From the NCBI GenBank assembly GCA_047967505.1, contig CM106538.1: DNA of 64,000 nucleotides. One strand, 5' to 3'. Below, piece after piece: positions 19,311 through 64,000 of this stretch. The stretch's first letter is position 1. Every line of letters begins with the position of its first letter. Made by a program: the position numbers and the translations under genes. The DNA is from Dipteris shenzhenensis (lineage: Eukaryota). Below the pieces are notes generated by a model. The model saw only the letters and a program-made list of their open reading frames with translations, ran no database searches and was not told the origin of the DNA.

Positions 19311-22300
19311 CTACTCAAATGCCTTCTCCTCATATGGGGGGCTTACAGGTTCTTGCGTAGTTACATGAGAGTGGAGCGTTGATATTTAACAGCCCCCCTC
19401 AATGTACCCGCAAGTGAACTTAATTTTTTGGTCTAATGCCAAGTCGATGAAGATGCCTCTCCAGCAAGTCTCTTTCAAGAGCCTTTGTGAAGATGTCCGC
19501 AGCATTCTCTGTAGTCGAACAATACACCAAGTTGACCTCTCCATCCATGATGAGCTCACATACAAAGTGATATTGAATCTCAATGTGTTTTGTGCGAGCA
19601 TGGAACATAGGGTTCTTTGCAATCGCCATGAAACTTTGATTGTCACATGATAACTACATAGGCTTGTTCTGCACTGCACCCATGTCCCCCAGAATCCTCC
19701 TCAACCACACTGCCTCGCAAGAAGCAAAGCATGCTGATTTTTTTTACTCAGCCTCGGTAGAAGAAAGAGCAACTGTGGATTGCTTCTTGCTGACCCATGA
19801 CACAGCTCCAGATCCAAGTGAAACAGTGACCTGTCACTGATCTCCTGCTGTCCACGTCTCCTGCCCAATCCGAGTCACAGGATCCAGTCAAGATGTTGCC
19901 CTTGGTATAGGTGATGCCATAATCAAGTGTGCCTTTGATGTATTTCAGCACCCACATCCCTGCCCTCCAATGGTTCTCCCGAGGCGTATTGAAAAACCTG
20001 CTTAGTACACCAGTCGCAAAGCTGATGTTCGACTGTGTGTTGCACAAGTAAATCGAACTACCCACAAGTCTTCTGTACTTCGCTTCATCCACCAGTGGTG
20101 ATGAATCCTCGGTTGAGAGCTTCACGTCAACCTCCATAGGGGTACCAATTGTCTTGCACTCAGCCATGCCAAATGCCTTTAGTATCTCTCCAACATACTT
20201 CAGTTGTGAAATGAAGATCTGTTTCGGCTCTTGCCAAACTTCAATCTCCAAACAGAAATGCATCAGTCCGAGGTCTGTCATTTTAAACTCTCTTCCTAGC
20301 AAATGCTTTGTCTGCAAGATCTTCTCTTCATGGTTCCCTATTATGACAAGGTCATCCACATAAAGGACCACGATCATACACCTGCCTCCTTCTCTGAAGA
20401 TATACAAATTTGCATCTGATGGGCTCCTCCTGAACTCGTTTTGTAGAAAGAAGGCATCAATTCATTAGTACCATGCTCGTGGGGCATGTTTCAGCTCGTA
20501 AAGTACCTTCTTTAGTTTATAGACTTTACCTTTTGAACTGGGGATCACAAAACTTGGTGGTTGTTCCACATATACCTCCTCCTTGAGATCCCCATTCAGA
20601 AAGGCGGATTTTACATCCATCTGAAACACGGGCCAACTTCCCTGGGTAGCTAAAGCCAAAACACTATGAATTGTGGTTAGTTGAGCTGTGGGAGCAAAAG
20701 TATCCTGATAATCAAAACCATGTACTTGTGCAAATCCTTTTGCCACGAGCTGAGCCTTGTACTTATCCAACGTGCCATCGGACTTGTACTTGGTCTTGTA
20801 CACCCACTTGGTGCCAATTACCTTGCGTTTTGGTGTACGATCCACAAGGTCCCAAGTGTTGTTCTTCATTATGGAGCCATACTCTGACTGCATAGCCTCC
20901 ATCCACCTATCATCACCTTGTGCCTCTTCAAGACACTTGGGTTCATCACTTCTGTCATCAAAGCATAGTTGACCAAGTCTTCGTGCGCTCTTCTTTGCTC
21001 CTCTAATCTCTTGGACTGGCGGTGTTCGGATGGTTCCTCCTCAATGGCTGGAGGTTCTCTGCCATTCAAAAGCTGCTTTACCCACTTCGGGAATGGCTTT
21101 TGCAGTTGTGGTTCTGTAGGCTCTTCTTCATCTTCTTTATCTTGAATCCTTCCAAGCACCGTTGGGGGAGTTCGGTCTGTTGGTGGTGGTGGTACTGGAT
21201 GGATATCCTAGTCCTAGTTGTCTAGGAAGGAAGCATCCTCCTTCAATTGATGCGGCTGTTCTAAGAAGACCACATCGCAACTTACTATTACCTTCTTGGT
21301 AACAGGGTTATAGAGATGGTAACCCTTCACCTCTTCACTGTAGCCCAAGAAAATACACTTTCGGCTCTTTCGGTTCCCATTTGGTCATGTTAGCATCAGG
21401 GACATGCACAAAATAGTCACATCCAAAAACTTTGAAATGTGCAACTGAAGGTTTCTTACTAGAAAAGGCCTATAGTGGAGTCATCCCATTCACAGCTTTC
21501 GTATAGCTACAATTTAGAATGTAAACTGTACTGTTATATGCTTCAGCCCAGAAAGTCTTTGGCAAATCTTTCCCTTTCATCATACTCCTGCCCATTTCAC
21601 AGATGACGCGCATCTTGCATTCTGCTACTCCATTTTGCTGTGATGTATGTGGCGGGGGTTTCTGCCTCTTAATCCCATGACTTTTGCAGTAACTCTCGAA
21701 TTCAGTTGATGTGAACTCTCCACCTCTGTCTGATCTCAATTTCTTCACCTTCTTCCCCGTTTCTTTCTCGACCATTACATGCCATTCCTTGAACTTACTA
21801 AAAGCCTGGTCTTTAGTCTTTAGGAAGTATATCGATATCCTTCTACTGTAGTCATCGATCATCATCATGAAGTAGTAGGAACCACCCAAAGCTTCCGTCT
21901 CCATCTGTTTGCAGAGGTTCATGTGAACGAGCTCTAGAGGAGCCTTTGCCCTGTTGGCCTCTTTAGGAAAGGGCTGTCAATGCTGCTTGCCCATCATGCA
22001 AGCTTCACATACATCGGGCAGATCTGAAATTTTTGGTAGGTTTGCAATCATTCTACTTTTATGCATCTCCTTCAAAGAACTAAGGTTTAGATGACCAAAC
22101 CTCTCATGCCACAGCTTCTTGTTCCTTCACATCGGCTCGAGCACTGAAAGCTGAGAGTTCGTAGATGTTGTTGTGCCATGTACCTTTACCAATGACCTTT
22201 CCTTGAAGATCCAAGATCTGTGCAACATTCTTATAGAATTGAACTTTGAGGTCCCGATCCGTGATCACAGAAATGGACAACAAGTTCCTCTTGATATCTG

Positions 22301-27779: not shown

Positions 27780-28999
27780 TTAATGCCCCTAAAAATAGAA
27801 TCCATCATGTCCACCATACCCTATCCGAGAGACTACTCTCTTGCTCAAAGTGTGAAGGTATACGCACGCTCTGCCATGCTCCTCAACTTGCCTCAAGGTT
27901 TTGTGTAAAAAATGCATGCAATATTAGTCATGAACTTAAATAGCGTTGACTTACCGATAATCCATCACCACCACCAATGGCTGATACTGGTGTGGGCTGC
28001 TTCCCATCCAGCCACAAGTGGTGCATGAAAATACAGCGTTGATGTCATACTTCTCACTTGCAATGAGTGCAAGGACAATACAACCTCTCGATAAGCCACT
28101 CCACACTCTCGAGCTTTGGCATACCATCTGACGAGCTTCCCCTTCCATCTATACACCTCTAAAATCACAACACAAAATGATTACAATCCAGTCAAGATAC
28201 AAAAGATAGCTTATTGTTAGTTTTTATGCTCTATTCGTCAGTATATACCAACTTTCAAGGATACATAGAGTCAGTATATATTGATTGTTTGGAAACAATA
28301 CAGTGTCGGTATATATCGACACTGTAGCGCTAAAATGCCAAGATCCACATGGCCACCTCTCACAAATCTTTCGCAAAAAAACCCAAAGCCTTTCCTCCTT
28401 CCTCACCTTCGACAACCTCACCTTCCTCCAACCTCTTTCCCACAGTCCTCACCCCTACCCAGCCCCTCTCCTAACACTTGTGCTCCCTCTCCACCCTTCT
28501 ACCTCTCCTCATGTGAAAGGTCCTTTTCCAAGAAAGTGTGTCTATTTAAACAATGTAGGTTTTTTCCTTCCCCATTTTGTTTTATGAGTGTTAAAGCATG
28601 TTTCTCCTTGCATTGCTAAGACCATGCACTCATTTTCATGCTTTTTTTTCAGAGTTGAAGGACAAAAAACGAGATTTTGTGAAGGAAAGAAGGCTCACCT
28701 CATTTTTTTGGGTATTTCTCATGCTTTTCCTTGCTTTGCTTGCTTCGGGTGTTGTTTTGCGTCTCCTTTGCTTCTCCTTGTCTATCCTTTGTTCTCACGG
28801 AATGGTTTATTGCCCTCTTCTCCTCTTCCCTTGGTTTTGCATGACTAAAAGGAAACCGGCCAACCCTCAACCCTAAACTTTCAAGTAAGTCATATCACCC
28901 CTTTTGTTTGTATTTTTTAATTTTGTTTTTCCACGGAATTCTCTGTGAGGCATTTGGGGTTGCAAGTACCATCTAATTACTCTTAAGCATTTTCCCTCT

Positions 29000-30560
29000 T
29001 TCCCTATTTTACTCACGTTGCCCTCTGATTCCCATATACCTATCACATTCATAAGCATATGCATATTCAAATGCTTATTATGCATATACTTATGCATATG
29101 CCTGATGCCTTTGCCTTACCTTGCCTTGCCCTCTTCCCCTATCCTATCACTCATAAGCTTGCCCTTGCCTAAGCATATGCTTGCCTTGCTTTCTTCCCCT
29201 ATCCTATCACTCCTAAGCATTTTTCCTCTTTGCATTTCTGATGCCCTCTTTCCCTTGCTTATGCCCTGAATTCCCCTACCCTCTTACACTCATAAGCATA
29301 TGCATTTGTAAATTCAAATTTTTATGCTTATGCATGAGCATATGCTCATATGCTCATGCATATGCATATAAGCTCACTCATAAGCTCTCTTCCCCTATCC
29401 TATCACTCCTAAGCATTTTCTTATGCCCTCTTTCCTTGCTTATGCCCTCTTCCCTAATTCCCCTACCCTCTCACACTCATAAGCATATGCATTTGCGTAT
29501 GCAAATGCTTAATATTCTTATGCATGAGCATATGCTCATCACGAGGGATTCACGAGTAGTAATAAGGAGACGTCACCTACGTGCAATAAATATATGAAAA
29601 TTCCCCTTATCGACCTCTATTTATAGGACCTTACCTTATAAAATGTACCTTCCTTCCCTTATATAACCCCCCTCCCTTACACTCACGTGGTACCATACAA
29701 TAAACCCTAGTGGACCCCTTGGGATGCTCATATGCTCATGCATATGCATATAAGCATAAGGATAATCATATGCTTTCCCTCTCCCCTATTTCACTCATAA
29801 GCTCTCTTCCCCGATCCTATCACTCCTAAGCATTTGCATTGCCCTCTTTGCCTTGCTTATGCTCGTATGATCATGCATATGCATATAAGCATAAGCATAA
29901 TCATATGCTTTCACCCATAAGCCCTCTCCCCCTATCCTATGACTCCTAAGCATATGCCTTCTCCCCTATTTGCCCTCTTGCCTTCTCTTATGCCCTTTTC
30001 TCTAATTCCCCTATCCTATCACTTATAAGCTTTGCATATGCATATGCGAATGCTTACTATGCATATGTCCTTACATATGCATGATGCATATTCCCTTGCA
30101 TTTGCATGATGCATTTGCAAGATGCATATGCCTTGCCCTCTTTCCTTCCCTTATGCCGTCTTCCCTTATTCCCCTATCCTATCACTTATAAGCTTGCTCT
30201 TGCCTAAGCATATGCATATGCAAATGCTTATTATGCATAAGCATATGCATATGCATGATGCATACGCCCTTGCATTTGCATGATGCATATGCCTTGCCCT
30301 CTTTCCTTCCCTTATGCCATCTTCCCTAATCCCCCTATCCTATCACTTATAAGCTTGCCCTTTCCTAAGCATATGCATATGCAAATGCTTATTATGCATA
30401 AGCATATACATATGCCTTTGCATTTGCATGATGCATTTGCAAGATGCATATGCCTTGCTCTCTTGCCTTCCCTTATGCTCTCTTCCTCTAATTCCCATAC
30501 CAATCACACTCATGATGCATGTGCTTCATATACTCGTATCCATATGCATTTACATATGGT
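29000..30560 (+). repeat. ATGC/CT-rich degenerate tandem array in CACTA copy 2
   Basis: Recurrent CCCCTATCCTATCACT and GCATATGCAT blocks. Confidence 0.85.
29540..29723. mobile_element. MITE with 8-bp TSD
   Basis: Ends CACGAGGGATTCAC / GTGGACCCCTTGGG, perfect TSD ATGCTCAT (29532-29539 / 29724-29731). Confidence 0.8.
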
Positions 30561-37456: not shown

Positions 37457-39603
37457 ATGGTGAGGAGACCATACATGTACTGTGTGTCCCACAGGAGCAA
37501 AAATGCACTGGGTGAATGGGTGCCTTGCACCTACAACTTGAATGATTGGATAGTCATGAGAGGATCTACTAAGGGTCCACATAAGCTTCCCAAGAGCAAA
37601 AGAGGTCATCTTTTGCATGAATGGAAGGGCCGCATCATGAAGTTCAAGCTTGGGAAGAAAGGATTGCTTACAAAGGTGCAACACATCTACATGGGGAAGG
37701 GCATGCACTTTCCTCCATCAAGCAATCAATCGACAATACCATTGCATTGTAAGTCTACATATTGTGTAATATTTTGAAGTGTAATGAGTCAACTTGAAAT
37801 TGTATTTTGAAATAGAACCAGTGTAATGAGTCAGTCTGAAATTGTATTTTGAAATAGCACTTGTGCATAGCAAATGTATTTCCTTCAGACTTTGAGGAGT
37901 GGAAACCAGTCGAGTGCTTCTTAGGTAAGTGTACTACCATTCATGAGGATTTAGGAAGGCAAATGCATGCTGGAGAGAAGTCCTCTACTTTGAAATAGAG
38001 AAATATCTATTGGTATAATGCCAAGTACATTACTCCAAGGACGGCATCAGGCTATGGCCATCTTCAATGCATTGCAACACCACAACTTGAAGACATGGAT
38101 TGCAGCATGGTGGACACAAGAACAATGCAATCATACAAGGAAAAGATTGCAAAGGATGTGGGCATGGCCATGAAGTTTACATTTGGCTCTAAATGGGTAA
38201 GGCACGTGGGTAGGATAAGGTTGCCATGTGGCACAAATTTGGCCAACCAAACCCAACCCAAGTAAACTTTAATGTACCAACGTACTGGAGGCGGCCAATG
38301 GTCTAGGTGTAGACTGTCGACATACTCTCATTTGTCCTGAAGCACAAGAATGGTCTCCATTCGGTATTTCCATGTACCATAATTGGAATTGTCTAACTTA
38401 GCAGATGCCTCCAGATTGAGGTTGCTAGTTGACATGGTGCAAAAAATGTACTCAAAAAGTGTCCTGAAAATATCTGTATGAATCAACTGCAAATACACTG
38501 AAGATGCCAAGTGAAATCTCTATACCGTCAGTGAAGATAGAACTGCAGTATATAAAATCTGATCTGTGTTACAAGGCTTGTGGCAATGATGCTGGGAATA
38601 GCCAAGAGGCTTTACAAGGCTGAGATGATGTGCACGATGCCATGAGATAGCCAAATAGGCTTTACAATAGTGGCATGTGTGTGTGAAATCAAGTGCTATC
38701 TACCCACTGAATCAATCTGCAATGCCTCTAAACTCTGAAGTCTGCTCACTGAACTGATGAACATAAGATTTTAGGTAATGTAATGATGTAAAATCAGATG
38801 TGAGCATATGGACTGACTCCGAGTAGGTACTAGTCGAGAATTTCGGGCATGGCTTAGATTGGCAACTTGGGAAAATTCAAAGCGTCCCCTCTATGGCAAT
38901 CTAGTCTACTCTGATCTAGATCTAAACCAACCGTTGATCGATGAAAAAACAACAAATAATTCCTTTTCTCTTGTTCTTTGTAAGTGTTGGGTCAGATGCA
39001 TCAATGTAGAGGCAAATGTGCATGAAGGAAGTGGTTTTGTTGGTGAGGCTCAAATTTGAGTGTAACTTGCACCAAAATGTGCATATGACCTCTACACATT
39101 TTTGCTTCTTGTTTTCATAATATCCAGATGCACAGAACAAAAACCATGTGGTCATGCAAGTGCCTACATGGGAATTCCCTTGAGGAATTGCTTGGGGTGA
39201 ATTGGGGAAGCAGGTTAGGTGAACAAAAGGGTGATCTGTTTCAATGCCATGTATGTAAGGACAATGTGGTTGTCAAGTACCACATCTCTCGCCAAATGTT
39301 ATATTTTGCTTTCCAATATGGTGCTGGAAGAAAATACGTAACAATTGGCTCCCCCTTGACTCTAATGATGATGATAATACAAGGGTAAGTTTATGTATTG
39401 GTTCTCATTTAGGAGATGTTAAGAATGTGACTATCACATCACATTGGACTCTCAGGGACATGCAAGAACACCTATTGGTCATGGAGGATGGCATGTCTGA
39501 GTCCTTTCACTTTACCTTAAATGGTGAAAAGGTAGGAAAGTGTGCAGAGAAGCTCGTGCATAGTGCCACTTTTATCCCTCCTGCAATATTGAAGATTGTC
39601 TAG
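37457..39603 (+). pseudogene. Transposon cargo gene with an N-terminal BAH-like domain and a possible C-terminal ubiquitin-like fold
   Basis: ATG at 37457. A GT..AG intron at 37749-37870 keeps the frame: TYNLNDWIVMRG..WKGRIMKF..VQHIY..VFPSDFEEWKPVECFLGKCTTIH..IYWYNAKY. The last exon (39413-39603) reads VKNVTITSHWTLRDMQEHL..FHFTLNGEKV. The gene is interrupted by a Copia fragment. Confidence 0.55.
38290..38435 (-). mobile_element. Copia gag N-terminal fragment inserted in the cargo gene
   Basis: KLDNSNYGTWKYRMETIL (DUF4219-type Copia gag start). Insertion boundaries are not resolved. Confidence 0.7.
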
Positions 39604-39834
39604 AAAATGTGGGGTGGAACAATTGTGGACTTTGACATTTTCCAATTAATAGTGGTGCAATTAATTTTGATGTTTTGAATGGTTTTGTTTCATGTCAATG
39701 TCAAGTTTTTCCCAAAAATTTTATAATTCTTTTTATTTTTTATATTTAGAACATTTGGGTATATATAGGTTATAAAGTTACTTTATTTCAAAGTTTCACT
39801 ATTATAGCCATGATCTCCTAGCTACCAAACTACC

Positions 39835-41242
39835 ATGGATTTTGTCAGGTCTACCTTCCACGATTTCATCTCCCATACTCCATTAATTGATAGAGAGGAG
39901 GAGTTATTTCCAGTATTTGATAAGAGCATAGATGTCCTAGGCACCTACTTGGGAGCCCGAGATGATTTTGAAGACCTCATCAAGTACATGCAAGACTACA
40001 TCACGAGTTTCGCATATCAGGTTGATGAGTCTACAAAAAGATGGGTCCCAATTGATTATTTGAAGTACTTGTTCAATCAAGAACCCAGGTTCGTGAAGCG
40101 TTTAGATTGCTTTCGAGCCCAGCTCACACCCCTAGGGTCTAGGGAGGTGGACACTGATGACCTCCTAGCATGTGGCATCATCAAAAACACTGGAAATAGG
40201 TTCCTATCCTGGGAAATGACCTTTATTTTCCTTCTCCAGGAGGGACAAATGGAAGAGGAGGCCTCAACCTCAAGCCCTGACCCTGCCCCTACCCTTTCCG
40301 ATCCTCTTATTTCTGAAGCTGCATTGGCCTTGGAAGTGCTCTAGCGACCTCCTGAACCCCATTCTACTTCTCAAATTCCATCCACCTTGGGCACCACCTC
40401 TGTTGACCCCGCAACAATGATATGGTTTCTTGCTCCCCTTCTTGTCGATGGAGAACAATACCTCTTTCTCCATGACATAGAGGTTATGTTTGGTCTTTGG
40501 GAGGATGAAGCTCTTGGTATCCTGTGTGGATACGAGGTGGACACGACTATGCAAGAACCTAGGTTTTTGGGAGAAAATGATTCAATAGAAGAGGTTCTTG
40601 CTTTAACACTGGCCCAAATCAAAGATGCAGAGACATCAAACTACTCTGACCTACCTGATGTTCCAAAAGAAGCCTCCACATCTCACTCCAGACAGTAGGA
40701 GGCCTCTCGATCCATCCTCATTGACAAAGAGGAAGGGATTGAGCATGATGACTCCATAGTGGTAAGAAACTATGAGCTTTGAATTTCTTCCCTCTTGGTA
40801 TACTTTTGCTTTAATGGAATTCTAATGTAATGTTGGACTATTGCAGGAGGCATTTGAGGTCGACCTATTCTCATCTCGGCAACGCCTTGTTCATGGTAGC
40901 TTCAGCCGAGATCACTCACTGGCACATTACGTTGGCCAAGCAGAAGGGCGCTTTGTGGTCATCCACAAAAATTTTTCTCCACATGGCACTGATGACCTCC
41001 TGAAGCGCAAGTCCTTGTCAAGAGTGATTGGTCATGCTGACATCAATCGCAATGCTGACAAGGTCATTTTGGTGAACCACATGGCTACCCTCAATGCCTT
41101 TGGAACCAACTTTCAAGGTATGGCATTGACGGCAGTAGCCATGTCCCTAGCCAGCAATGACAATAGCAATGACTCTCTATCGACTAGGTTTAGAGCTAGG
41201 AGTGAATTTGGAATTCAAAGCCCAATGTTCTTAGTGTTTTAG
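39835..41242 (+). pseudogene. Unknown transposon cargo gene (one intron)
   Basis: ORFs 39835-40344 and 40387-40698 are in the same frame, separated only by TAG stops. A GT..AG intron at ~40762-40846 leads into the 40847-41242 exon. No family recognised. Confidence 0.55.
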
Positions 41243-41758
41243 AGAAGAGAGAAAGGCTCTGAAGCCTTATTGTATAGAAATTTTATTTTATATGAATACA
41301 ACTATACTTTTTATACAGTGCCCCATTTTGTGCTCTTTTACAAAATTTATTTTATACTATCATTGTATTTTGTAACTTTAATTGTTGTTGGCATTAATAT
41401 TTTCATTCACTATTCTGTTCAAAAGCATGCGGTCAGATAAATATTTGTGCTATAATGGTCATTTCTGAGCAATCCAGTAAGAATCTGATCGCGTGCGGCA
41501 GAAGCAAAATGTGTTTGATGCCATTTTTGGGCTCCCCGCGCGATGCCAAACACGTTTGCCTTTTGCCGCACGGTGAAAAAACATCATTTGACCACTCAAA
41601 TTCACACTAAACTTGCATAAACTAATGGAAAGCATCACATAACAAGTATAATAACATGGGAACAGTAATAAAACATAAAAATAGCTTTTATTCATTGGCA
41701 TCAAAGGGCAAAGATTTACAAAATGATTCAGGTTACACCAAATGAAGCTAAACAACAT

Positions 41759-42877
41759 CTAGGGCCTAAGGGAGGGATCGGAGTGGATGCACTTGGTGAC
41801 TGCAAGGTCCTTGTCCATCACTGTTACTCTTTTGGCATGGATAGCACATAAGTTTGCATCTTCAAAAAGACCTACTGTCATTTGCTCCGTTGCCTCCTGA
41901 ATTGCTCCCATAGTGCCTGAAGTGAAACACACATCACTCTTGTAATGTTGTGCTATTTCACATACAACACGTTGGAAGGGTGCACGGGGAATGAGATTGT
42001 CCACAGTGGTTTGGAACTTGCGGATCTCCTGAAGTGCCTTCACTCCTGATTTTTTGTGCCTCTTAATCTTTGGGGGACCCTACACTCGCCTTTGGACATG
42101 GCTCCATGGCCGCTTGTCCACTTTTAACTTCTTTCGCCTCTCCTCCCTTGCAACCACCTCTTCAGCCTCCTCTTCCTATGTCTGCTGGGTCATTCGAGGT
42201 GGCCTCTCGTGCCTAGGGGTCTGCTTTGTCCTTGGTCTCTTTTCCTTTTCACGAGGCTGTGAGACAGCAAGCTGAGGCTCTTGCTCAGCTCATACTAGAG
42301 GCTCCTCATATCTAATCATCTCAAGTCACAAAGGGTTGATGGTGCTCTTCTGTGCGGTCTGCTTGTTGGTTGGAGGATTGGGGCCAAGGTTCATTATATC
42401 TCCGAGCCTGCTAAATACTTCCTCTTGTTGTGTCCCCTGTAATCTCTCCATCTCCTCTCTTTGCCTTTCTTGCTCCCCTTGTTGGTCTAGATGCTCCACG
42501 CTAGGACCCCACGGAGGAGGGAGGGGCAGTTGATCAGGATTGACTGGACTATTTTTCCCCTCTCGGGAGACCTCTCTACTTCCACGATTAGTTGTGTGGA
42601 AGGACTAAGAGGACCCCTCATCATGCTTGGATCCTTCATTGTGCTAGGATTCCTCATGGTGTTGAGATACCTAGGATCCCCCATGAGAGTCGAATGGTGG
42701 GGACTTATGTTGCTTGCGCTCTTGATGATGAGAACCGCCTTGAGATCCTTGGTGATCATAGCCCTCTTGGCCACTGGGGCTTGTACTGTGTTCAGAGGCC
42801 ATGGCATTATGAAGAGGACAACGGGTAGCATCTAAATAGTGTCTAGTGGGTCTAGTATTTTGTTTAACTCGTGCCAT
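41759..42877 (-). pseudogene. Divergent histone H3-like gene with a ~280-aa N-terminal extension
   Basis: A single frame runs from ATG 42877 (MARVKQNTR) to the stop at 41759, with 7 premature TAG/TGA codons and no frameshift. It ends in the histone fold [79 protein letters not shown]. Confidence 0.9.
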
Positions 42878-42889
42878 AGAAATGAGGGA

Positions 42890-42942
42890 TTTTAGGGTTT
42901 TGAAGTGCTTTATATAGTCTTTTTTAAAGCACTTTAGGGTTT
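42890..42942 (-). promoter_or_regulatory. Putative core promoter of the H3-like gene (TATA box and telo-boxes)
   Basis: On the minus strand, CTATATAAAG at ~42908-42917 and two AAACCCTA telo-box motifs (~42893-42900 and ~42935-42942) lie just upstream of the ATG. Confidence 0.45.
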
Positions 42943-43324
42943 TTCTTTTAAATTAGGGTCTTTTGAGTGCACCTCCTCCCCCCCTAGCCTTTTGTCCCCA
43001 GTTCGGTAATACTTAATCTTCACCATCCTCCCTCTCAACCCACTCTGCCCTCTTCCCTGCCATGTCACACATGCAATTCTGCAATTTCCAAACAAATTTG
43101 TGAATTTTGGAATCTATAATTGACTCAAAATAGTGTTAACTTTATTCATCAAACATTTTACATTTGGGGCTCTCTTAGGACCCAACGCCTCCCCTGTCTG
43201 ACTCTACATTGCAACCAAGTGCAACCCCTTGGCTCCCTATTGAGGACTTCCAAGCAGCACATCTCCTTGTCTTCTTGACATGTTGAACCACTTTTGCGAG
43301 ACTTGAGACCTCTACCTTATTGCG

Positions 43325-46300
43325 CTTGAGAGATGATCGACGACTCGCCACTCTGGGAGCCATTGAGGATTTGCCCATCACTGTCAATGGGTTGACCACC
43401 ACTGTCAATTTCTATGTAGTGGACATTGAAGATACACGCAGGAGTTACCTAGCCATACTCGGGAAACCATGGCTGAGAAAGAGTGATGCAGTCAACTATT
43501 GGAAGACAGGACACATGTCTTTTGGTGCTTCTAAGGACAAGATCCCGGTGCAACCTAGTGCCATGGAACTAGAAGAAGAAGAGGAGGAAGACAGTGATAC
43601 TCTCTCATCCTTGGTGTCTGAATCAATGGAAGAATTAGACGGGGGGGAGGAATTCTCAGAGGAGGAAGTTTACATGATGGACATGTCTCCGACCCCACCA
43701 CCTACAGAAAAGGTAACAGCTAGTCCTCAACAGCTTGAATCTATGCTTTCCCCATACCTCACTCCAAGTGAGAAAGACAAGTTCCTAGAAATGTTCAAAG
43801 ATTTCCCTGACCTCTTTGCAACTAGCTACCACCACCTTCGCCATGTGACTGCCATAGAGCACAAGATAGAGCTGAAGCCTGATGCGAAGCCTGTGGCTCA
43901 AAAGTATCAGAGATTAGGGCCCCTATAGACCGATGCTTTGCACTCGGAGTTACAAAAGCTTGTAGAGGCTGGGTTTATTATTCCGGTTCACAATACTGAA
44001 TGGGCTTTCACCAGTGGTAGTCACCCCAAAGAAAAACAACAAGTGGTGTGTCTGCATCGACTATAAGAAACTCAATGCAGCCACTAAGAGGGATCATCAT
44101 CCTCTGCCCTTTCAAGACCTCATTCTTGAGAAGGTAAGTAGTCATGAGATGTATACTTTCTGTGATGGTTACTCTAGGTTTTATCAAATCAGAATTGCCG
44201 AAGAAGATGTGCTTAAAACCACATTTGCCACACCCTGGGGGACATTTGCATTCAAACAATGCCATTTGGCCTCACCAATGCTCCTACTACCTTTCAAAAT
44301 TCATGCAGACAGTGTTTGCTCCTTATTTGGGGGATTTCTTGGAGGTGTTTTTAGATGATTTTTGTATATTCTCATCGTGTAAGGAGCATGTCATGAAGGT
44401 TAGATTGGCCTTCCAAAGGGTCAATGATGCAAATGGCAGTCTCAACCATGAGAAATGCACCATTAGAGCCAATCAAGGGAGGTTACTGGGACATATTGTC
44501 TCATCCAAGGGCATCAAGCCTGACCTCGAGAAGGTAGAAGCCATCCTCAAGCTCTCCCCGCCTACAACCAAATGTCAGATACGTTTATTTGTTAATCTAG
44601 CAGGATACTATCGCCGCTTCATTGATCAATATGCTGCTTTGACACGACCCATGACTATGCTATTAAAAGATGGGGTTGATTTCTCTTGGGATGAGGATTG
44701 TGATCATGGGTTTGCACAAATTTCAGAACCCATTCTACGCAATCCAGATTGGTCAAAGACTTTCTATATCAATCCTGGGTTTGGTGAGCACACTCTGGCA
44801 GGTATTCTTCTCCAATAAGGGGAGGATCGGTTCATGTATCCTGTTCGATTTGCTTCTCGACAATTGCTCGACACTGAGCGATGCTATTCAGAGGCTGACA
44901 AGCATGCCTTGTCTTTGGTGTTTTGCATTGAGAAATTTAATCATTATGTGGCTGGAAAGTCCTTCATTATACTCACTAGCACTGGTCTTGCAAAGCAAGT
45001 TCTTCAATCACCAAATCCCATGGGCTAGTTCGCCAAATGGTTGGCAGTTCTACAAGAATATGATTTTTCTTTCAAAATTGTAAAAGGGGGTTGTTCCAAA
45101 TTGAAGAATGCTTTGATTGATTTAGAGGAGTGCCTTGATGTAACCCTTGTAGTAGCCATAAGAGTTGGGGATCCATGGTATGGTGGTATCTACAAGTTTC
45201 TGACTGCTTTCTCCTTTCCTTCAGAAAGTACTACCTATGAGAGAAATAAGATTTGCAGAGATAGTAGGTGCTACACCCTCCTTGATGGGGTGTTGTACCG
45301 TCAAGGCATGGAAGGGGTAATAAGATAGGCCATTGATGTAGATGAAGTGCCTAAGGTATTGAAGCATTATCATGATGGATTTTGTGGAGGCCACTATGCC
45401 AGTGACTATACAGCTAAGAAGATTTTACATGCTGGATACTATTGGCCGACCTTGTTCAAGGATGTCACTTTGTATTGCAAAACCTGTGAACCATGCCAAT
45501 TCTTTAGTAGGAAGGATTTGCGTCTTGGGCAACATCACCCAGTGATGTCCATCCATCCGTTTTAGAAGTGGGGAATAGATTTTGTCGGGCCCTTGCCCAT
45601 GACTGCCTGCAAAAAGAAGTATCTTTTGGTAGCCACTCAGTATGTCACTAAGTGGGCTGAAGCTATCGCCCTCCCCACTGCAAATGGTAAGGTAGTTTCA
45701 AATTTCATATTTGAACGTATCTGCACAAGGTTTGGGACACCCATGGAGATTGTCTCTGACCATACTAGTCCATTCTTAAATGAAGCAGTGGAGTTACTCA
45801 TGGACCGCATGGGTATCAATCATCACACTTCTAGCATCTATTATCCGACATCCATGGGGCAAATAGAGCGGACCAATGGCCTCCTTTGTAAAACCATGGG
45901 AAAAATGGCCACAGGGAACAGGAGCCAAGGGGATTAGGAGGTCACTGAAGCCATGTGGGCTTACAACATCACTCATAAAACATCTATAGGTCACACTCCT
46001 TTTGAGTTGGTATATGGTACTCAGGTCGTTTTACCACTAGAGATAGAGATTCCAGCTTTGAGATTGGCACAAGAACAGAGGATGACAGAAGATGAACATG
46101 TAGAGGCCAGTTTGGTGCAACTTGAGAAGTTAGATGAAACTCGAGGCCTTGCACTACACCAAATAGAGGTCCAAAAGAATCGACAAAAGGCCCGCTTGGA
46201 TGCTAAGATTCACAAGGGATGGGAAAGACACTTTGCTGAGGGGGATGTTGTGCTATGCTTTGATAACAAATTGGACCCGAGGGATTCACAAGAGGAAACT

Positions 46301-47846
46301 TATGATATCACGTGAGAGTACAATAGGGGGGTTTTTTTTTAATGAGGCATAAGCTTATACATTAGGGGTGTGGAGCCTTTTATTTTTTCCCAATATTGAA
46401 TTTAAGTTAGGGGGGCCATGCCATATTTAAGAGGGGGGGACATAGTATAGGCTACCTTGGGTGACTAGTCCAAACAAGTTTGGTTTTGTGTATGGTTTTA
46501 AATCGTCATAGGGAAAGTAATCTAAATTTCCTTATTGTGTGATCTAAATGCTTGAGAAAGAACGCAGATTTAAGGAAAGGGGGGACATAATAGAATTTTG
46601 GTGGTATCTTATAAGCTTAAATAGGGGTGTTTTATCATCCTACATGGATCTTAAATAGGGGGTTTTCTTGAAGTTCATGCACGCAGGTGACGTCCCCTTT
46701 TCATGAAGAGTGAATCCCCCGGGAAATTGGACCACCAAATGGATAAGAAGTTTCTGCCACTGTGGACTAGTCCATACAAAGTCTTCAAGGAACATAGCAA
46801 TGGGTCTATACAAGTTCAGGAGCTGCATGAACCATATGGCAAGAAGGTGATCAACAAATGTTACCTCAAGCCTTTCTTTGTGCGTGATGGACCCAGGCAT
46901 GGAAATGCTATGCATTCCTTGCCTGGGGGGGGAACTGTCATGGATAAAATTGTTTAAGGAAAAAGGCATTAATATGTGTGTGTGTTTGTATATGTGGCAA
47001 TAGTATAATAAAATATGGTGTGCATAGGGCCCAGGGTTGAGGTGGTAGGGCATGACCATGTGCCACCCTTCCATGTAAGAGGACCCATAAGGTGTGTTGT
47101 ACATAATCTGTGATAGTAATATTATAAAATGTAAGGTGGCATGGCTCCTCCATGTGCCACCCCTCCACCTAGGCTGCATTTAGTAAGATATGACTCAAAG
47201 TCCATGGGAGAAGTAATATAAAATAGGTGGAGATGGATATTATATTGAGTTATTCCCTCCATATGGGATAGGCCCATGTGGGGGAGGTATAGAAGGTCCA
47301 AGAGAGCAAGTTAAATAATGGGGAAAGTAGGATGAGGTGGCAAGATTCCTTGTGCCAACCCTCCACTTGTCCTCCTAGAGGTTTGAACATATTATAAAAT
47401 TGGGAAGAGACCAAGGGAGTATCATAGACTTGAGATATGGAGCTTGATTTATGTGGAAAATTGAGGCAAAGGGTGTGGCACACAATTGAGAGTGCGTAAC
47501 CGCCTAGCCCACATGGGAGACTTTTCCACACACCGACACGCTCATTCTTGTAAAGCCACCTAGCTAGTACTTTGATATTTCCCTCTCATCCTTTCTTTCA
47601 AATAAAGTATGGTCCTCTTCCCATGATGTCTCCATCTTTACATTCCTCCTCCTATCATGTACGTGCTTCTCTTCCCCCTCTCCCTTTCCCCTTGTGTCAT
47701 AGTCTCCCTCTTCATTCCCTCCCCTTCTAATTCATTTTCCCCTCCCATGATAACGGTTCGCCCTCACGATCTCCTTTCCCCTATGGCCCTCGAGCATCGC
47801 CATGCTTAGCCTCTAGCCTCTGGTCTTGATTTCTTTTCCGGCTAAT
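43325..47846 (+). mobile_element. Ty3/Gypsy (non-chromovirus, Athila/Tat-like) pol plus 3' LTR, 5' part deleted
   Basis: ILGKPWL protease end; CIDYKKLN, FCDGYS and FLDDF RT; RNase H; H..CGGH..YYWP..CKTCEPC and WGIDFVGP integrase. The PPT (GGGGGGGGAAC) is followed by an LTR starting TGTCATGG at 46936. Confidence 0.92.
46276..46723. mobile_element. MITE with 8-bp TSD inserted in the Gypsy integrase
   Basis: Ends CCCGAGGGATTCAC / GTGAATCCCCCGGG, perfect TSD AAATTGGA (46268-46275 / 46724-46731). Removal restores FDNKLD-HQMDKKFLPLWTSPY. Confidence 0.88.
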
Positions 47847-47847
47847 A

Positions 47848-49730
47848 GTACCCGCTCCAATGGAATTTGTAGAATGGGGTCCCACTTAGGGTCCTTTTTG
47901 TGATGATCAGGGGCTGCACTTTGGTTGCAAGAAAGGATGCCATTTTGCCACTATAGGCTTCCCTTTTGCATCTTCTGAGAGTGGGTGCAATACAAGCATG
48001 TCCATTTTGCATCTGCACCTATATCACAACCATACAAGCACTTGAGGGTCTTTAAATCACCAGTTAGATGCCATTCAACTTGAAACGTTCCATGCCCATC
48101 CACAATTAATGTTTGCCCTACCTCTTGTCTTTGAATAATCGACAGGATGCCGGTTCTCTCCAAAACCCACTTCAATGTCTCGTGGCACTCCAAAGGCTAC
48201 AAGCCACCATATGTCCTCAGATTAGACTGAGAAACCCTACTCAAGTTCCTCATCCCCTTGAGAAAAATGCAAGGCATCATTCATAATACAAATGCTCACC
48301 CTCTCTAGCTTGTGCTCTTTTGCCAACTGAGCTTCATCCATTTTTATAACAAATACTAGCTTGCCATCTGTACAATGAATGAGAAATTCAGTAAGGATAT
48401 AGAAATCAGAAGAAATAAAGTTGAATATGAAGAGGGAATTTCTCTTACCTTCTTCTCTCATCCCATATAATTTGACCATGGCTCTCTGCAAATTCTCTAC
48501 ATCTACATAAACATTATTGAAAGCATTCATCTCAAACATTTGGATGCCAGATTTCGTTTTACTCTTCCAAGTCATTGTGCCACTTACACAATGTTATCTT
48601 CCAAGCTTTTCTCTAGCACATTGGTTTGTTTCTTGATGTGCAAGCCTTATAGACCATGTTGTTGGCAATGGCATTGTAGATATCTTATACTTTTCCTCCA
48701 TAGCAAACTTGAAAATTTTAAAAACAGAGTTGTAAGCTTCATGACTTACACCAGCAGCATCATAAGCTCCAAGCACCTCCTTTGCTTGGACGAGGCCCTT
48801 GAAATGCTTCATTACCTCTCTAGCAACTTGTTTACATAGCCCTTTTTGTCTAGGATCCTTCAACACTTCCATGACATCACTTGGCTTTATTAAACTTCTT
48901 AGAACATATGAAGGATCACTATCATCCATTTCCATTGTTCCTGTCACATCCTCCATGAAATTCCTAAAGTAGAGTACAAATGAGTCTTAGTGGAAATAAT
49001 GCTACACCACAAATATTTTGGGGTAAGAAATTTCATTGAAAATTTAGGGAACTAACCTTGTAGCCCATATTCTCCTCTTTCGAGCACCACTATTGGTTGA
49101 CAATGCATCCATAGATTGCAATTGTCTTTTCCTCTCCTTCAATCCCAAAGGTGTTCCCTTCAACTTTTGTACTCGTTCAATCGACTTCTCTCGTTCCTTC
49201 TCCACAGCACGTTGTACTTGGCCATAGATAGACCTTTCCAAATCTTGTTTGCTTTTCGCAAGCTTCTGGATTGATTCATGTCGCTCCAAGTCCAGTGCAG
49301 GTGCTTTGTCACTGAGTTCTTTGTTTTGCAATTGGACATCCTGCATACTATTATGCATTGCCACAATAGTAATATTTCCCAAATGTGCAAGTTCTTCTAC
49401 TTGGGCTCTCTGCACCTTGCTTGCTTGCATAGCCAATGTCTGAGAATGGTTCAATCGATTGCAATAACCAAGCAATCTAGCATGTCCCTTGCCAACAAAT
49501 CGAACAACATCATGCACTGTATGAAAAGGAGGACTCTTTTGGGTGGCAAGGTCTAAAGGATACAAGTTTCCATCCACCCAAAGGTCAAGATGCTTCTTCC
49601 CTTGCAATCGAAGACTATGGAGCACACTTTGATGAGTTCCACTATATCCCAAAGAACGTGTGCTTGCATATTCTACCCCCAGTTGTAGGTTCACATGGTA
49701 CTTGTTGGATATTTCCTCGAATGGTGCCAT
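47848..49730 (-). pseudogene. DDE-type transposase of the 36672-50400 element (three exons seen; rest interrupted or deleted)
   Basis: A coiled-coil N-terminus, then FVIKMDEAQL (first D), VEWHLTGDLKTLKCLYG..AKWTCLYC (DxK plus CxxC) and WDPILQIPLERV, where it is cut by the Gypsy LTR. GT-AG introns near 49058-48964 and 48448-48368. A possible C-terminus lies at 43175-43325. Confidence 0.72.
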
Positions 49731-54200: not shown

Positions 54201-54680
54201 ATGAGAGGGAATAGAAGTTGCAGGAAGAGTTCAAGGGAGAAAGAAATAGCTGAGAGAGGGATAGAAGATGAAACAGAGAAGGAAATGGAATAGTGGAGGC
54301 TTAGGTTTGCAGTTTGAGTGCAAGGGAGAAAGAAATGGTCATGAGGGATAGAAGATGAAATAGTGAAGGGAATGGAATAGTGGAGGCTTAAGTTTATAGC
54401 CCGATTGCAAGGGAGAAAGAAATGATCGAGACGAAACAATGAAGGGAACAGAATTGTCAAGGTGAGAGCCACCGCGATGGTTGGCCCAAATTTTGATTAA
54501 TTCAAGGTAGCAATTGCACCTTACATGGTAATGAGTGTCAGATTATGCTTCATGATTTACATTAGTGATAATTTTTGCCACCTTCTATCAGTGGTGGTGG
54601 CGGCTAACATTCCATCGAGGTGGTGTCTAAGATTGGCACCATGTCTGTGGTGGTGGATAAGATTCCATTGGGCTGGTAGT

Positions 54681-55670
54681 TTTAGCCGGAAAAGTAATTG
54701 AGACCAGATGCTAGAGGCTAAGTATGGCGACGCTCAAAGGCCATAGAGAAAAGGAGATCATGAGGGCGAAGGGATGTCATAGGGGTGAAAAAGGAATTAG
54801 AAGTGGAGGGAAGGAAAAGGGAGACTATGACACAAGGGGAAAGGGAGAGGGGGAAGAGAAGCATGTACATGATAGGAGGAGGAATCTTGAGATGTAGACA
54901 TCAAGGGAAGAGAACCATACTTTATTTGAAAGAAGGGATGAGAGGGAAATATCAAAATACTAGCTAGGTGGCTTTACAAGAATGAGCGTGTCTCATCAAG
55001 GAATAGCCCCTTCCTTTTATAGCCAAAAGAGGGGGTCTCTCCACATTAATGTATCCTCCCACATGCATGGTGTGTGTGGAAAAGTCTCCCATGTGGGCTA
55101 GGTGGTTACGCACTCTCAATTGTGTGCAACAACCCTTTGCCTCAATTTTCCACATAAATCAAGCCCCATATCTCAAGTCTATGATACTCCCTTGGTCTCT
55201 TTCCAATTTTATAATATGTTCAAACCTCTAGGAGGACAAGTGGAGGGTTGGCACAAGGAATCTTGCCACCTCATCCTACTTTCCCCATTATTTAACTAGC
55301 TCTCTTGGTCCTTCTATACTTATCCCACATGGGCCTATCCCATATGGAGGGAATAACTCAATATAATATCTATCTCCACCTATTTTATATTGCTTCTCCC
55401 ATGGACTTTGAGCCATATCTCACTAAATGCAGCCTAGGTGGAGGGGTGGCACATGGAGGAGCCATGCCACCTTGCATTTTATAATATTACTATCATGGAT
55501 TATGTACAACACATCTTATGGGTCCTCTTACATGGAAGGGTGGCACATGGTCATGCCCTACCACCTCAACCTTGGGCCCTACGCACACCATAGTTTATTA
55601 TACTATTGCCACATATACAAACACACATACATATTAATGCCTTTTTCCTTAGACAATTTTATCCATAACA
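54681..55670 (-). mobile_element. Solo LTR of the same Gypsy family as 46936-47846
   Basis: Inverted homology to 46936-47846. 5-bp TSD GTAGT (54676-54680 / 55671-55675); starts TGTTATGG on the minus strand. Confidence 0.88.
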
Positions 55671-56700
55671 GTAGTTAATTACCAACCATCGCAATGGTCC
55701 ACAATTACTCACCTACTAGTTACCACCACCATCGGGCTTGCATGATCAGTAGAGTGTAGTTAATTACCAGCCAGCAGGATTGCATGCTCAATAGAGTGAA
55801 TGGTAATGGGCTTGCATGATCAGCCTAGTGCAATTAGTTACCAGTCATCGGGCTTGCATGCTCAATAGAGTGCATGGTAATGAGTGATTGGAGGTGATTA
55901 GACTTCATGCTTAATGTTTGTGGTAACTATTGCCACCTTCCACTGGTGGTTGCGACGGTCGATGGTAGTGGCTCCAAGGTGGCATCTATGATTACCAGCC
56001 ATGTCTGTGGTGGTGCCTAAGATTCCACGGAGCTACCCATTAATTACCAGCCACCGTAGTGGCCTACAATTACTCACCTTCCAATTACCATCACCAGGCT
56101 TACATAATTAGTAGAGTGATGTTAATTACAAGTCACTGGGCTTGCATGCTCAGTAGAGTAATTACCATAGTTTATTGCTAGTTAATTACCAGGACAATCG
56201 CATCTCCTTCATGATTACCATCCGTGTTGTAGCTGATTGCCACTACCTTCGGTGGTGAGGTCGCATCTAAGATTCCTTCGAGCTGGTAGTTAATTACCAA
56301 CCACACCACAGTGGCTTCTAATTAAAATGTCTCATGATTAAATTTGAATGGCACCCTCCTTGGATTTCGATTAATTAAGGTGGTGGTTTAAAATAGTTCA
56401 TGATTATTTAGATAGCACACCGGGTCTCTAGGTGAAAAGGGAGAAGAAGAAGATCCCTGTCGATGGCTTGAACTTTAATTAATATATGGTCTATGGCATT
56501 TGGCATTTGGCTACTTTGGTTTAAAATGGCTCATGATTATTTGGATGGCAACCTCCTTGGGATTTTGATTAATTAAGGAGGTGGCTTAAAATGTCTCATG
56601 ATTATTTGGATGGCACACTGAGCCTCGAGGTCCAAAGAGAGAAGAAGGTGATGATCCCCAGTAGCTCCACTCAGCACGGTGGCTCGAACTTTCTAATATA
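55671..56700 (+). repeat. Degenerate tandem repeats (TAATTACCA / GGGCTTGCATG / CATGATTATTTGGATGGCA motifs)
   Basis: Recurring motifs that continue the sequence at 54500-54680 across the solo LTR. Confidence 0.7.
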
Positions 56701-61345: not shown

Positions 61346-64000
61346 ACAATACAACGTCTATGCTCAACAGATAACAGGATCTCGTATGCAAGAGAGAAAA
61401 GCAGATAGTATGGAGAATCAAAAATTTGATTACTGTAAAACTGATACAATAGATGGCGCTACCTCCCAGCCGTGCGCTCCTGTGTGAGAAGCTTCGGTGG
61501 CATGCTGGAAACAGTAGAGGACGGAGGCTGGATGCTAAGGAATCAGGGTTGCTGCTAGCCAGTGATGATGATGGGCTTCACAGGCTTGCTCTTATATAGC
61601 CACCAATTGTAGTCGGTTAGACCCAATTGGGAGACCGACCCAGTCAGCCCAAAACAACCGATTGGAGATCGGTCCCAAAATAGGCCACCGACCACACGTT
61701 AGAACCGTGGCGCAACCGTGGCGCAAAATAGAGCAACTGACCTACGAACACCGTTCGGCCCAGAGCCATCCGAGATCATTTGGGGCTCCAAATGAGCCTC
61801 GCAACTCGAGAGTGGGCTGCCTCGAAAAATGCTCCGTCTACCCTTAGTGCGTTCAGTCATGGGATGCCTTCCCACACTTGCATGTAGCCTAGTTGGCAGT
61901 GTGCCAACTCTATCTGAAGCCGTCCAGCCATCAGGCCACACATGGCCCCCATCTGGTGTCCAAACCAGGATCTACCAAATAACCTAGTTACTCAAATGCC
62001 TTCTCCTCATATGGGGGGCTCACAAGTAGAGCTAGCTGGTTCCCGCGTAGTTATAGGATAGTGGAGCATTGATATCTAACACCCCCCCTTAATGTCCACC
62101 TGCAAGTGAACTTACTTTTTCGGCCCAATGCCAAGTCGATGAAGATGCCTCTCTAGGAAGTCTCTTCCAAGAGCCTTCGTAAAGATGTCCGCAGCATTCT
62201 CTATAGTCGGACAGTACACCAAGTCGACCTCTCCATCCATAATGAGCTCGTGTACAAAGTGATATTGAATCTCAATGTGTTTTGTGCGAGCATGGTACAT
62301 AGGGTTCTTTGCAATTGCCATGCAACTCTGATTGTCACATGATAACTGCGTAGGCTTGTTCTGCACTACACCCATGTCCCCTAAAATCCTCCTCAACCAC
62401 ACTTCCTCACAAGAAGCAAAACATGCTGATTTTTTGTACTCAGCCTCGGTAGAAGAAAGCGCAACTGTAGGTTGCTTCTTGCTGACCCATGACACAGCTC
62501 CAGATCCAAGTGAGAAACAGTAACCTGTCACTGATCTCCTGCTGTCCATGTCTCCTGCCCAATTCGAGTCATAGAATCCGGTCAAGATGTTGCCCTTAGT
62601 ATAGGTGATGCCATAATCAAGTGTGCCTTTGATGTATTTCAGCACCCGCATCCTTGCCCTCCAATGGTTCTCCCGGGGCTTATTGGAAAACCTACTTAGT
62701 ACACCAGTCGCAAAGCTGATATCCGGCCACATGTTGCATAAGTAAATCAAACTGCCCACAAGCCTTTTGTACACTTCGGTTCGTCCACCAGTGGTGATGA
62801 ATCCTCGTTTGAGAGCTTCACATCAACCTCCATAGGGGTGCCAACTGTCTTGCACTCAGCCATGCCAAATGCCTTCAGTATCTCTCCAGCATACTTCAGC
62901 TATGAGATGAAGATCTGTTTTGGCTCTTGCCAAACTTCAATCCCCAAACAGAAATGCATCAGTCTGAGGTCTGTCATTTCAAACTCTCTTCCTAGCAAAT
63001 GCTTTGTCTGCAAAATCTTCTCTTCATGATTCCCTGTTATGACAAGGTCGTCCACATAAAGGACCACGATCATACACCTGCCTCTAGATATACAAATTTG
63101 CATCAAATGGGCTCCTCCTCCTGGACCCGTTTTGCAGAAAGTAGGCACCAATCCGCTGGTACCATGCTCGTGGGGCCTGTTTCAGCCCGTAAAGTGCCTT
63201 CTTTAGTTTACAGACTTTACCTTCTGAACCGGGGATCACAAAACCTGGTGGTTGTTCCACGTATACCTCCTCCTTGAGATCTCAATTCAGAAAGGCGGAT
63301 TTTACATCCATCTGAAACACGGGCCAACTTTCATGTGCTATTAAGGCCAAAACACTGCGAATTGTGGTTAGTCAAGCTATGGGAGCAAAAGTATATTGAT
63401 AATCAAAACCATGTACCTGTGCGAATCCTTTTGCCATGAGCCGAGCCTTGTACTTATCCAACGTGCCGTCGGACTTATACTTGGTCTTGTACACCCACTT
63501 GGTGCCAATTACCTTGCGTTTTGGTGGTCAATCCACAAGGTCCCAAGGTTGTTCTTCATTATGGAGCCATATTCCGACTGCATAGCCTCCATCCACCTAT
63601 CATCACCCTGTGCCTCTTCAAGACACTTGGGTTCTTCAGCACGGATCACCTCTGTCGTCAAAGCGTAGTTGACCGAGTGTTCCTGTGCCCTTCTTTGCTC
63701 CTCTAATCTCTTGGACCAGCGGTGTTCGGATGATTCCTCCTTAATTGCTGGAGGTTTTCTACCGTCCAAAAGCTGCTTTACCCACTTCGAGAATGGCCGT
63801 TGCCGTTGAGGTTCTGCAGGCTCTTCTTCCTCTTCTTTATGTTGAATCCTCCCAAGCACTATTGGGGGAGTTCGGTCTATTGTTGGTGGTTGTACTAGAT
63901 GGATATCTTGGTCCTGGTTGTCTGGGAAGGAAGCATCCTCCTCCAATTTATGCGACTGTTCTGAGAAGACCACATCGTGACTTACTATTACCTTCTTGGT
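61346..64000 (-). mobile_element. Ty1/Copia family A, copy 2 (RT-RNase H plus partial 3' LTR), extends past the window end
   Basis: High nucleotide similarity to 19311-21300. The LTR ends AACA at 62081, next to the PPT; motifs LYVDDL and HARTKHI. Confidence 0.93.

Follow-up and report, generated by a model that had tools for sequence, protein, structure and literature searches.

Arabidopsis H3.15/HTR15 and the sperm variant H3.10/MGH3 are lineage-restricted variants of histone H3, proposed to act through a missing K27 methylation context. Long, fast-evolving N-terminal tails are typical of the centromeric variant CENH3, and a longer loop 1 together with a divergent CENP-A targeting domain (CATD) region marks CENH3/CENP-A. 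Viruses can also encode histones, as with the bracovirus H4, which has an extended tail. Histone-mimic motifs in non-histone proteins are described in the accessible parts of two sources, with auto-methylation of SETDB1 and viral mimicry as examples (bioRxiv 10.1101/2025.01.21.634156; PMC11738798). The accessible part of a study of transposon capture points mainly to reader domains (Chromo, PHD), SNF2 and SET as the captured chromatin domains, and reports no transposon-borne H3 there (bioRxiv 10.1101/2021.11.30.470311). Here, we describe an H3-like gene copy with a very long N-terminal tail on the minus strand, positions 41759-42877, of a 64,000-nucleotide stretch of Dipteris shenzhenensis DNA (GenBank assembly GCA_047967505.1, contig CM106538.1; hereafter the window, which is plant-like, transposon-rich DNA of about 42% GC with copia- and gypsy-type open reading frames). 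We conclude that the locus is probably one pseudogenised copy, without introns, of an H3 variant gene that is lineage-specific and present in many copies, and that the genome around it is plant-like and rich in transposons.

A broken H3 frame and its decay

On the minus strand, 42877-41759 reads as a single frame of 372 codons with a terminal TAG, and is interrupted by seven internal stops, of which five are TAG (codons 69, 78, 91, 234, and 266), two are TGA (codons 184 and 196), and none is TAA. One and the same frame holds the N-terminal motif at the ATG, two further tail motifs, and the histone fold, over 1,116 nt with zero frameshifts, and tblastn identifies it as the only copy in the window. 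The list of open reading frames (ORFs) fragments it into pieces of 68, 57, and 94 amino acids (aa), and the initial annotation was thus accurate in describing a frame of about 372 aa with seven stops that the ORF track splits.

The C-terminal part of the frame (aa 256-372; 41759-42112, minus strand) encodes an H3 histone fold with alpha-N, alpha1, alpha2, and alpha3, ending in SDPSLRP, as judged from alignment and from a match to PF00125 over aa 256-362 (E 2.3e-24; 86.4 bits against a gathering cut-off of 26.4). The fold is identical to canonical H3 returned by our searches at 51/97 positions (53%). All 60 of the best solved-structure matches listed are H3 chains, with E values of about 1e-25 to 1e-27. 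The first of these alignments places query residues 271-360 on H3 residues 41-130 without a gap, with alpha-N and alpha1-L1-alpha2-L2-alpha3 collinear with the solved H3, and the three PDB alignments examined are either ungapped or carry one one-residue gap ahead of alpha-N. An AlphaFold2 model of the locus protein, of low confidence (mean predicted local distance difference test [pLDDT] score 53), places the fold helices at 277-295, 301-311, 320-350, and 355-366, in the order expected for H3. The fold region has itself been damaged, by the stop at codon 266 and by Arg-to-Cys/His changes at conserved positions.

The damage has a consistent character. One C-to-T change in CAG or CGA would be enough to produce each of the seven stops. 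Three arginines conserved in canonical H3 and in the closest relatives (group B, below) are Cys at the locus (VVCEI, DVCF, and KCIH), and a fourth is His. The observed/expected ratio of CpG is 0.32 in the histone frame and 0.37 window-wide, as against 0.83 in a glyoxal-oxidase gene at the start of the window. Deamination of methylated cytosines gives C-to-T decay of this kind (CAG/CGA to TAG/TGA, CGN to TGN/CAN), and we infer that it caused the decay seen here. A 346-bp contig from the DNA sequencing run X1, whose contigs total 1.95 Mb, matches 42327-42668 at about 95% identity and is paralogous to the locus; it has CAG where the locus has the TAG of codon 91, and differs from the locus by an in-frame 3-nt indel beside the second tail motif. 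Of its other 10 listed differences, eight are non-synonymous and two synonymous, which is close to neutral. Introns and readthrough, considered as explanations of the stops, were rejected because coding sequence of the relatives spans four of the positions concerned, and the paralogue has CAG at a fifth. Where the initial annotation had seen a gene whose stops needed to be read through, we therefore find a decayed pseudogene, a dead copy from which the protein cannot be made.

Copies of the H3 N-terminal module in the tail

Three stretches of the tail resemble the start of H3. The first, MARVKQNTR (42851-42877, minus strand), lies immediately after the ATG and behind a TATA-like box, and its alignment to ARTKQTAR gives 5/8 identities (ARVKQNTR). 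The better matches sit internally: motif 2, KQTAQKST (aa 172-179; 42341-42364, minus strand), is identical to H3 residues 4-11 at 7/8 positions, and motif 3, RTKQTPR (aa 216-222; 42212-42232, minus strand), to H3 residues 2-8 at 6/7, both without gaps. At the N terminus, the K9 position is occupied by Pro, both here and in a more distant relative, P0396 (MARTKQTARPS); motif 3 has no K9-type lysine, and motif 2 is the sole motif with K4-, K9-, and S10-type positions. No K27-type ARKS motif occurs in the frame. The initial annotation had placed all three motifs, exactly and in one frame, and had likewise seen no K27 motif; its picture of a long-tailed H3 with three N-tail look-alikes holds, and the K9 mimicry that it attributed to the tail is confined to motif 2.

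The two internal look-alikes are far beyond chance. Using ungapped identity to ARTKQTARKST (taken from the canonical H3 in our searches) and 5,000 shuffles of the tail, we found a match of at least 6/7 in 2/5,000 shuffles, against two separate matches of this quality in the actual tail; at least two non-overlapping 5/7 matches arose in 0/5,000. The two tail motifs are also the only 6/7 sites across the 127,996 residues of the six-frame translation of the window. A gapped local-alignment version of the test (null mean 27.4; observed 34, 29, and 24) was uninformative because the tail and the H3 N-tail are both rich in K, R, Q, and T.

The rest of the tail is of mixed character, and Pfam finds no domain in the tail taken alone. 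The low-confidence model has helices at aa 127-162 and 236-252, in agreement with the charged helical segments proposed earlier, and all three motifs fall in stretches modeled as disordered. The second helix largely coincides with the best-conserved element of the tail, a charged segment ending in RPW (EVVAREERRKKLKVDKRPW; aa 240-258; 42104-42160, minus strand). The SxHxEGS-type repeats described in the initial annotation are present, but only as a short array at 42610-42661 (minus strand), an 18-nt tandem repeat of 2.9 copies with 73% matches that codes for His/Glu/Gly/Ser-rich xHxEGS units; the TAG stops of codons 78 and 91 lie inside this repeat or at its edge.

Relatives, phylogeny, and conservation

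We searched a collection of 5.8 billion proteins, in which none of the 204-651-aa proteins among the best 120 of 274 matches listed aligned beyond the fold (query coverage 22-39%), and the protein-search matches listed include no named protein from NCBI or UniRef that shows this tail. Shorter proteins included a distinct set, which we call group B (P0122, P0123, P0126, P0135, and P0139), later joined by P0263, P0397, P0392, and their cluster members through a profile search, cluster look-ups, and a representative search. Group B now holds 28 distinct sequences in eight clusters at 90% identity, from contigs of 550-2175 bp (ENA), none of them named. The most informative is P0126 (188 aa), an open frame aligned to locus aa 154-338 with its elements in the same order as at the locus, namely F..LGDI..LG, KQTARKS, RRTKTTP, REERRKKFKNDKRPW, PPKVKRRRKPG, and the fold; P0245, P0263, and P0397 agree with parts of this order. 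The group-B frames are open at the places of the locus stops at codons 184, 196, 234, and 266. Judging from these relatives, whose frames are open from residue 155 onward, the tail is, or was, coding.

An exhaustive profile search gave 15,331 matches, and of the best 150 listed, we examined the 14 that reach the tail part of the profile, three of which belong to the family. One of the three, P0396, was of a new kind: on a Logan contig of 1,417 bp, it forms an intact ORF of 335 aa, which starts with MARTKQTARPS and continues into an uninterrupted 235-aa tail. Its N terminus agrees with that of the locus (MAR.KQ..RP) at 7/11 positions; its long tail is acidic, an ERPPW element stands ahead of the fold, and it shares fold signatures with the locus. 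Its PF00125 score is 113.7 bits, within a range of 56-114 bits for the relatives. Scans of JGI metagenomes with the tail profile A4 and with P0396 returned no relative; in the ESM Atlas, P0126 gave only leads below 0.9 to small, unnamed streptophyte clusters, and P0396 gave no usable match.

A maximum-likelihood tree of 32 fold sequences, in which bootstrap values had not fully converged and support is therefore rough, groups the locus with seven group-B sequences (98/92) and places P0396 as their sister (93/83). All 11 canonical H3 rows and 10 of 11 other long-tailed H3 proteins fall outside this family clade, the eleventh, P0008, standing beside it. P0080, from Adiantum, looks similar by eye and was considered as a member, but lies outside the clade. 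A C-terminus of the form SDP(A/S)LR(H/P) is specific to the long-tailed family.

Conservation between the locus and group B is uneven along the protein. Alpha-N is identical at 15-17/21 positions; for the fold, the five rows of full length give 42-47/71, and P0126, which is truncated, gives 25/42. In the tail, the charged helix with RPW (aa 240-258) is identical at 12-15/19 positions in six relatives, and an RPW/PPW element is also present in P0396. Motif 2 is retained at 7/9 and 5/9 positions (KQTARKS in P0126, KQTTRKS in P0397) and motif 3 at 4-6/10, with all four covering sequences reading [RK]TKTTP (RTKTTP in P0126, P0397, and P0263; KTKTTP in P0245). By comparison, the linkers keep 5-6 of 21-31 positions (aa 181-213) and 0-4 of 2-14 (aa 224-239). 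Such unevenness argues for past selection at the protein level. The expectation in the initial annotation that the motifs would be better kept than the linkers is thus borne out among close relatives and fails in the distant P0396. It had also allowed that intact copies might begin translation near the fold, leaving the tail non-coding; the relatives are instead open through the tail, and the intact P0396 starts at an H3-like N terminus.

The family looks multi-copy and largely decaying, as far as its contigs allow us to judge. X1 contigs cover 41574-42743 at a word depth of 7-18, compared with 30-70 for a neighboring gypsy pol, and this depth suggests a repeated histone family without proving it. 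Two of the 16 group-B sequences read by eye have frame-shifted ends (P0260 and P0392), and several show Arg-to-Cys, Arg-to-Trp, or Arg-to-Gln changes, again by eye. Group-B gene calls begin at an internal Met or at alternative starts; P0126, for example, is a 564-nt ORF on a 1138-nt contig, which by arithmetic leaves about 570 nt upstream. Internal starts with contig left upstream imply that those copies, too, carry an upstream stop, frameshift, or start.

Flanking signals

The locus retains what may be the signals of a gene of its own. A TATA-box-like TATATAAA lies 32-39 nt upstream of the ATG (42909-42916, minus strand), and two AAACCCTAA motifs, which we take to be telo-box-like, lie less than 70 nt upstream of the ATG on the gene strand (42892-42900 and 42934-42942, together spanning 42892-42942). 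The window has three matches to AAACCCTAA where 0.70 are expected, and two of the three are these. A polyadenylation-signal-like AATAAA hexamer stands 67 nt downstream of the stop codon (41687-41692, minus strand), with no A-tract after it at the locus. A classical processed (retroposed) pseudogene was rejected on the TATA-like box, the two upstream AAACCCTAA motifs, and the missing A-tract; target-site duplications were not searched for.

Strength of the case and a proposed function

Several observations weigh against our reading of the locus as a relic of a long-tailed H3 gene. An intact full-length member of the close clade was not seen among the group-B sequences, and no relative that we found covers aa 1-154, save for the 11-residue N terminus of P0396. 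For the first 40% of the tail, the argument that it codes depends on frame continuity, the one paralogous contig (42327-42668), and composition. Stop counts do not help, since over the 266 codons of the tail, they do not separate frame 0 (seven stops) from frame 1 (eight), while frame 2 has 24; because stop counts alone are insufficient, the coding case for the tail rests on the motifs, the continuity of the frame, and the relatives. The best-kept tail element is the charged helix with RPW, not a KQT motif, and P0396 keeps neither internal motif (1/10 and 0/9). As the tail of P0396 shares little with that of the locus beyond its ends, the long tail could have arisen twice. The structure model of the locus protein is a low-confidence one (mean pLDDT 53), copy number is suggested by contig depth, and every member of the family is known here from DNA sequence alone.

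With these points in mind, we propose the following for the parent gene. It would have had its own TATA/telo-box promoter and poly(A) signal and would have encoded a protein of about 335-370 aa with an H3-like start (MAR.KQ..RP) and a long, mostly disordered, charged extension. In the sub-lineage of the locus, two more N-terminal modules (KQTA[RQ]KS and RTK.TP) would have come next. A conserved charged helix ending in RPW and a complete H3 fold would have made up the rest. Intact members may use their H3 fold to pair with H4 and thereby become part of nucleosomes, where the over-long tail would display K4-type lysines in all three modules and a K9/S10-type site in motif 2 only. Nucleosomes carrying the long-tailed H3 could then be read and written differently from those with normal H3, offering extra K4/K9 substrates or binding sites, and given that the K27 ARKS context is missing, they would escape K27 methylation. 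We regard a nucleosomal function of the long tail, broadly along these lines for intact members, as a tentative suggestion, less than likely on what the sequences offer. More doubtful still is the idea that intact members have been amplified together with repeat DNA, or as such DNA themselves, and serve as built-in decoys or as multivalent platforms, drawing writers and readers away or gathering them at the chromatin concerned, for example in transposon-rich or germline chromatin; the "multivalent K4/K9 decoy" of the initial annotation is pure inference.

Alternative explanations

Another possibility is that the long-tailed H3 is a passenger of a mobile element, with a transposon or repeat unit carrying or amplifying it and the tail modules serving the element, for instance to mark or shield the chromatin of that element. 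As to the nature of the sequence, this explanation overlaps with ours; the two part over the cause of its many copies. The many diverged, partly broken copies (28 sequences in eight clusters), their word depth in X1, and a CpG depletion that matches the transposon-rich window all fit such an origin. So does the neighborhood: a degenerate, 5'-truncated Ty3/gypsy pol at about 43300-46000 (plus strand), with reverse transcriptase, RNase H, and integrase zinc-binding and core regions broken by stops and frame changes, starts about 450 nt upstream of the histone frame on the opposite strand, and the intervening 43000-43288 is also repeated in X1. However, other gypsy copies in X1 diverge from the locus upstream of 43331, for which reason the gypsy piece looks like a separate insertion, a truncated neighbor not evidently forming one unit with the histone gene. 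Within 30-56 kb, neither a long terminal repeat (LTR) pair nor an inverted-repeat pair was found on the two sides of the gene (41.7-43.0 kb), a weak test with one genomic copy, and Pfam finds no transposon domain fused to any family protein. A TATA box and a poly(A) signal also belong to the histone gene itself, and X1 coverage is absent at 40638-41573 and 42744-42977, though such holes prove nothing. On balance, we consider a passenger origin unlikely, while giving it some weight.

Much less probable is an ordinary H3 pseudogene in which the supposed tail never coded and is filler between exon 1 and the fold, either an insertion or an old intron, with the motifs as debris of partial H3 fragments. 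The near-equal stop counts of frames 0 and 1, the lack of a close relative for aa 1-154, and a GT after the first TAG that could pass for a splice donor are what such a history would leave. Yet aa 155-275 form one open frame in the relatives with the same order of elements, the X1 paralogue differs by an in-frame 3-nt indel and has CAG for TAG, the three motifs share one frame with the fold, conservation is patterned rather than uniform, and P0396 has a continuous 235-aa tail.

A paralogue or pseudogene of CENH3 is highly improbable. It would account for the long, divergent N-terminal tail, for a fold just 53% identical to canonical H3, and for a weak match to the CENP-T histone fold, although this is sub-threshold (17.3 bits against a cut-off of 28.1). 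The alpha1-loop 1-alpha2 region nevertheless aligns to H3 without the loop-1 insertion expected of CENH3, the fold keeps H3-type sequence blocks, and the tail bears N-tail modules of the canonical H3 type. The family has many copies and no introns, and the 60 best PDB matches listed are all of the H3.1, H3.2, or H3.3 type, with no CENP-A among them. No verified CENH3 was included in our tree.

A live gene using a reassigned code or programmed readthrough, a reading that the wording of the initial annotation could suggest and that the use of TAG or TGA at all seven internal stops would fit, is scarcely credible, given that the frame itself terminates at TAG, that the standard code leaves neighboring ORFs open (glyoxal oxidase, 284 aa; transposon ORFs, 200-250 aa), that relatives and paralogue have sense codons at five of the stop positions, and that C-to-T decay is indicated instead by the Arg-to-Cys/His changes and by the CpG depletion.

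Other features of the window

At the start of the window, 1-855 (plus strand) holds the C-terminal part of a glyoxal/galactose-oxidase-type gene that runs off the window start (PF09118, 84.6 bits, and the end of PF07250); it is probably live because its CpG ratio is unlike that of the rest of the window. About 1.4 kb downstream of the histone pseudogene, 39346-40637 (plus strand) is a frame of about 330 aa with two stops, which includes a 169-aa ORF (39835-40344) without a Pfam match; this repeat-borne coding sequence is also found in X1 contigs at about 93-95% identity. Pfam found no match on the plus-strand frames of 36.0-41.8 kb, nor on two overlapping 114-aa ORFs at the histone locus (42491-42835, plus strand; 42487-42831, minus strand).

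A large inverted repeat at 46934-47855 and 54672-55672, whose arms (541 nt, 96% identity; 321 nt, 89% identity) enclose about 7 kb, could represent DNA transposon termini or an inverted pair of LTR fragments. ORFs resembling Ty1/copia reverse transcriptase and integrase by eye lie at 19748-21922 and 62112-64000 (both minus strand). A satellite-like, GCATATGC-rich tandem array occupies 30034-30507, with about three copies of a 161-nt period that are 80-95% identical. The stretches 8000-12000 and 28000-30000, with a GC skew of about -0.4, an AT skew reaching -0.46, and low-complexity ORFs rich in L, S, F, and C, are probably pyrimidine-rich simple sequence.

Comparison with described histone variants and mimics

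The family represented by this locus is an unusual and unannotated one, and it belongs among the H3 variants. With canonical H3.1/H3.3, it shares a complete H3-type fold without a loop-1 insertion, the MAR.KQ start, a polyadenylation signal, and, in the locus copy, the lack of introns. It differs in its tail of about 270 aa as against about 40, in having the N-terminal module three times rather than once, in the replacement of K9 by Pro at the true N terminus, and in the absence of both the K27 (ARKS) and K36 (GGVKKP) contexts. The C-terminus is SDP(A/S)LR(H/P) in place of GERA, the long-tailed family forms a separate clade, and the copy at the locus is broken. CENH3/CENP-A likewise combines an H3-derived fold with a long, fast-evolving N-tail, but the locus has no loop-1 insertion and has kept H3 N-tail modules, and its family is multi-copy and decaying where CENH3 is an essential low-copy gene. 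H3.15/HTR15 and H3.10/MGH3 are single genes with tails of normal length, whereas the locus tail is about seven times longer and reiterates the K4/K9 module. In the main texts covered by our literature search, supplementary tables aside, no plant H3 variant with reiterated N-tail modules is described.

A further likeness, which bears on the possible role of a mobile element, is to virus-encoded histones and transposon-captured chromatin domains, where chromatin proteins are borne by parasites or amplified; the histone locus differs from the transposon-captured domains in that no transposon structure has been shown there. Taken by itself, the result for this locus is modest, since it is a pseudogene. 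The family also shows that multi-copy histone variants can lie hidden in large plant genomes, missed by annotation since their copies are mostly broken. Should intact members be expressed, they would be H3 variants of unusual design, in which a single fold bears as many as three copies of the part of H3 that is under the heaviest regulation (R2/K4, and once K9/S10) and lacks a K27 context. Nature would thus offer an experiment on the response of writers and readers to how many tail modules a nucleosome carries and where they lie.

The tail resembles, finally, the histone mimics of other proteins, at least as these are presented in the accessible parts of the sources cited above, in having short ARTK/ARKS-like motifs outside the H3 N terminus that could engage writers or readers. 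The difference, within the same limits, is that the known mimics lie in enzymes and viral proteins, while the motifs described here sit in cis on a potentially nucleosomal histone-fold protein. Should the decoy reading prove true, this would be a histone that carries its own "histone mimics."

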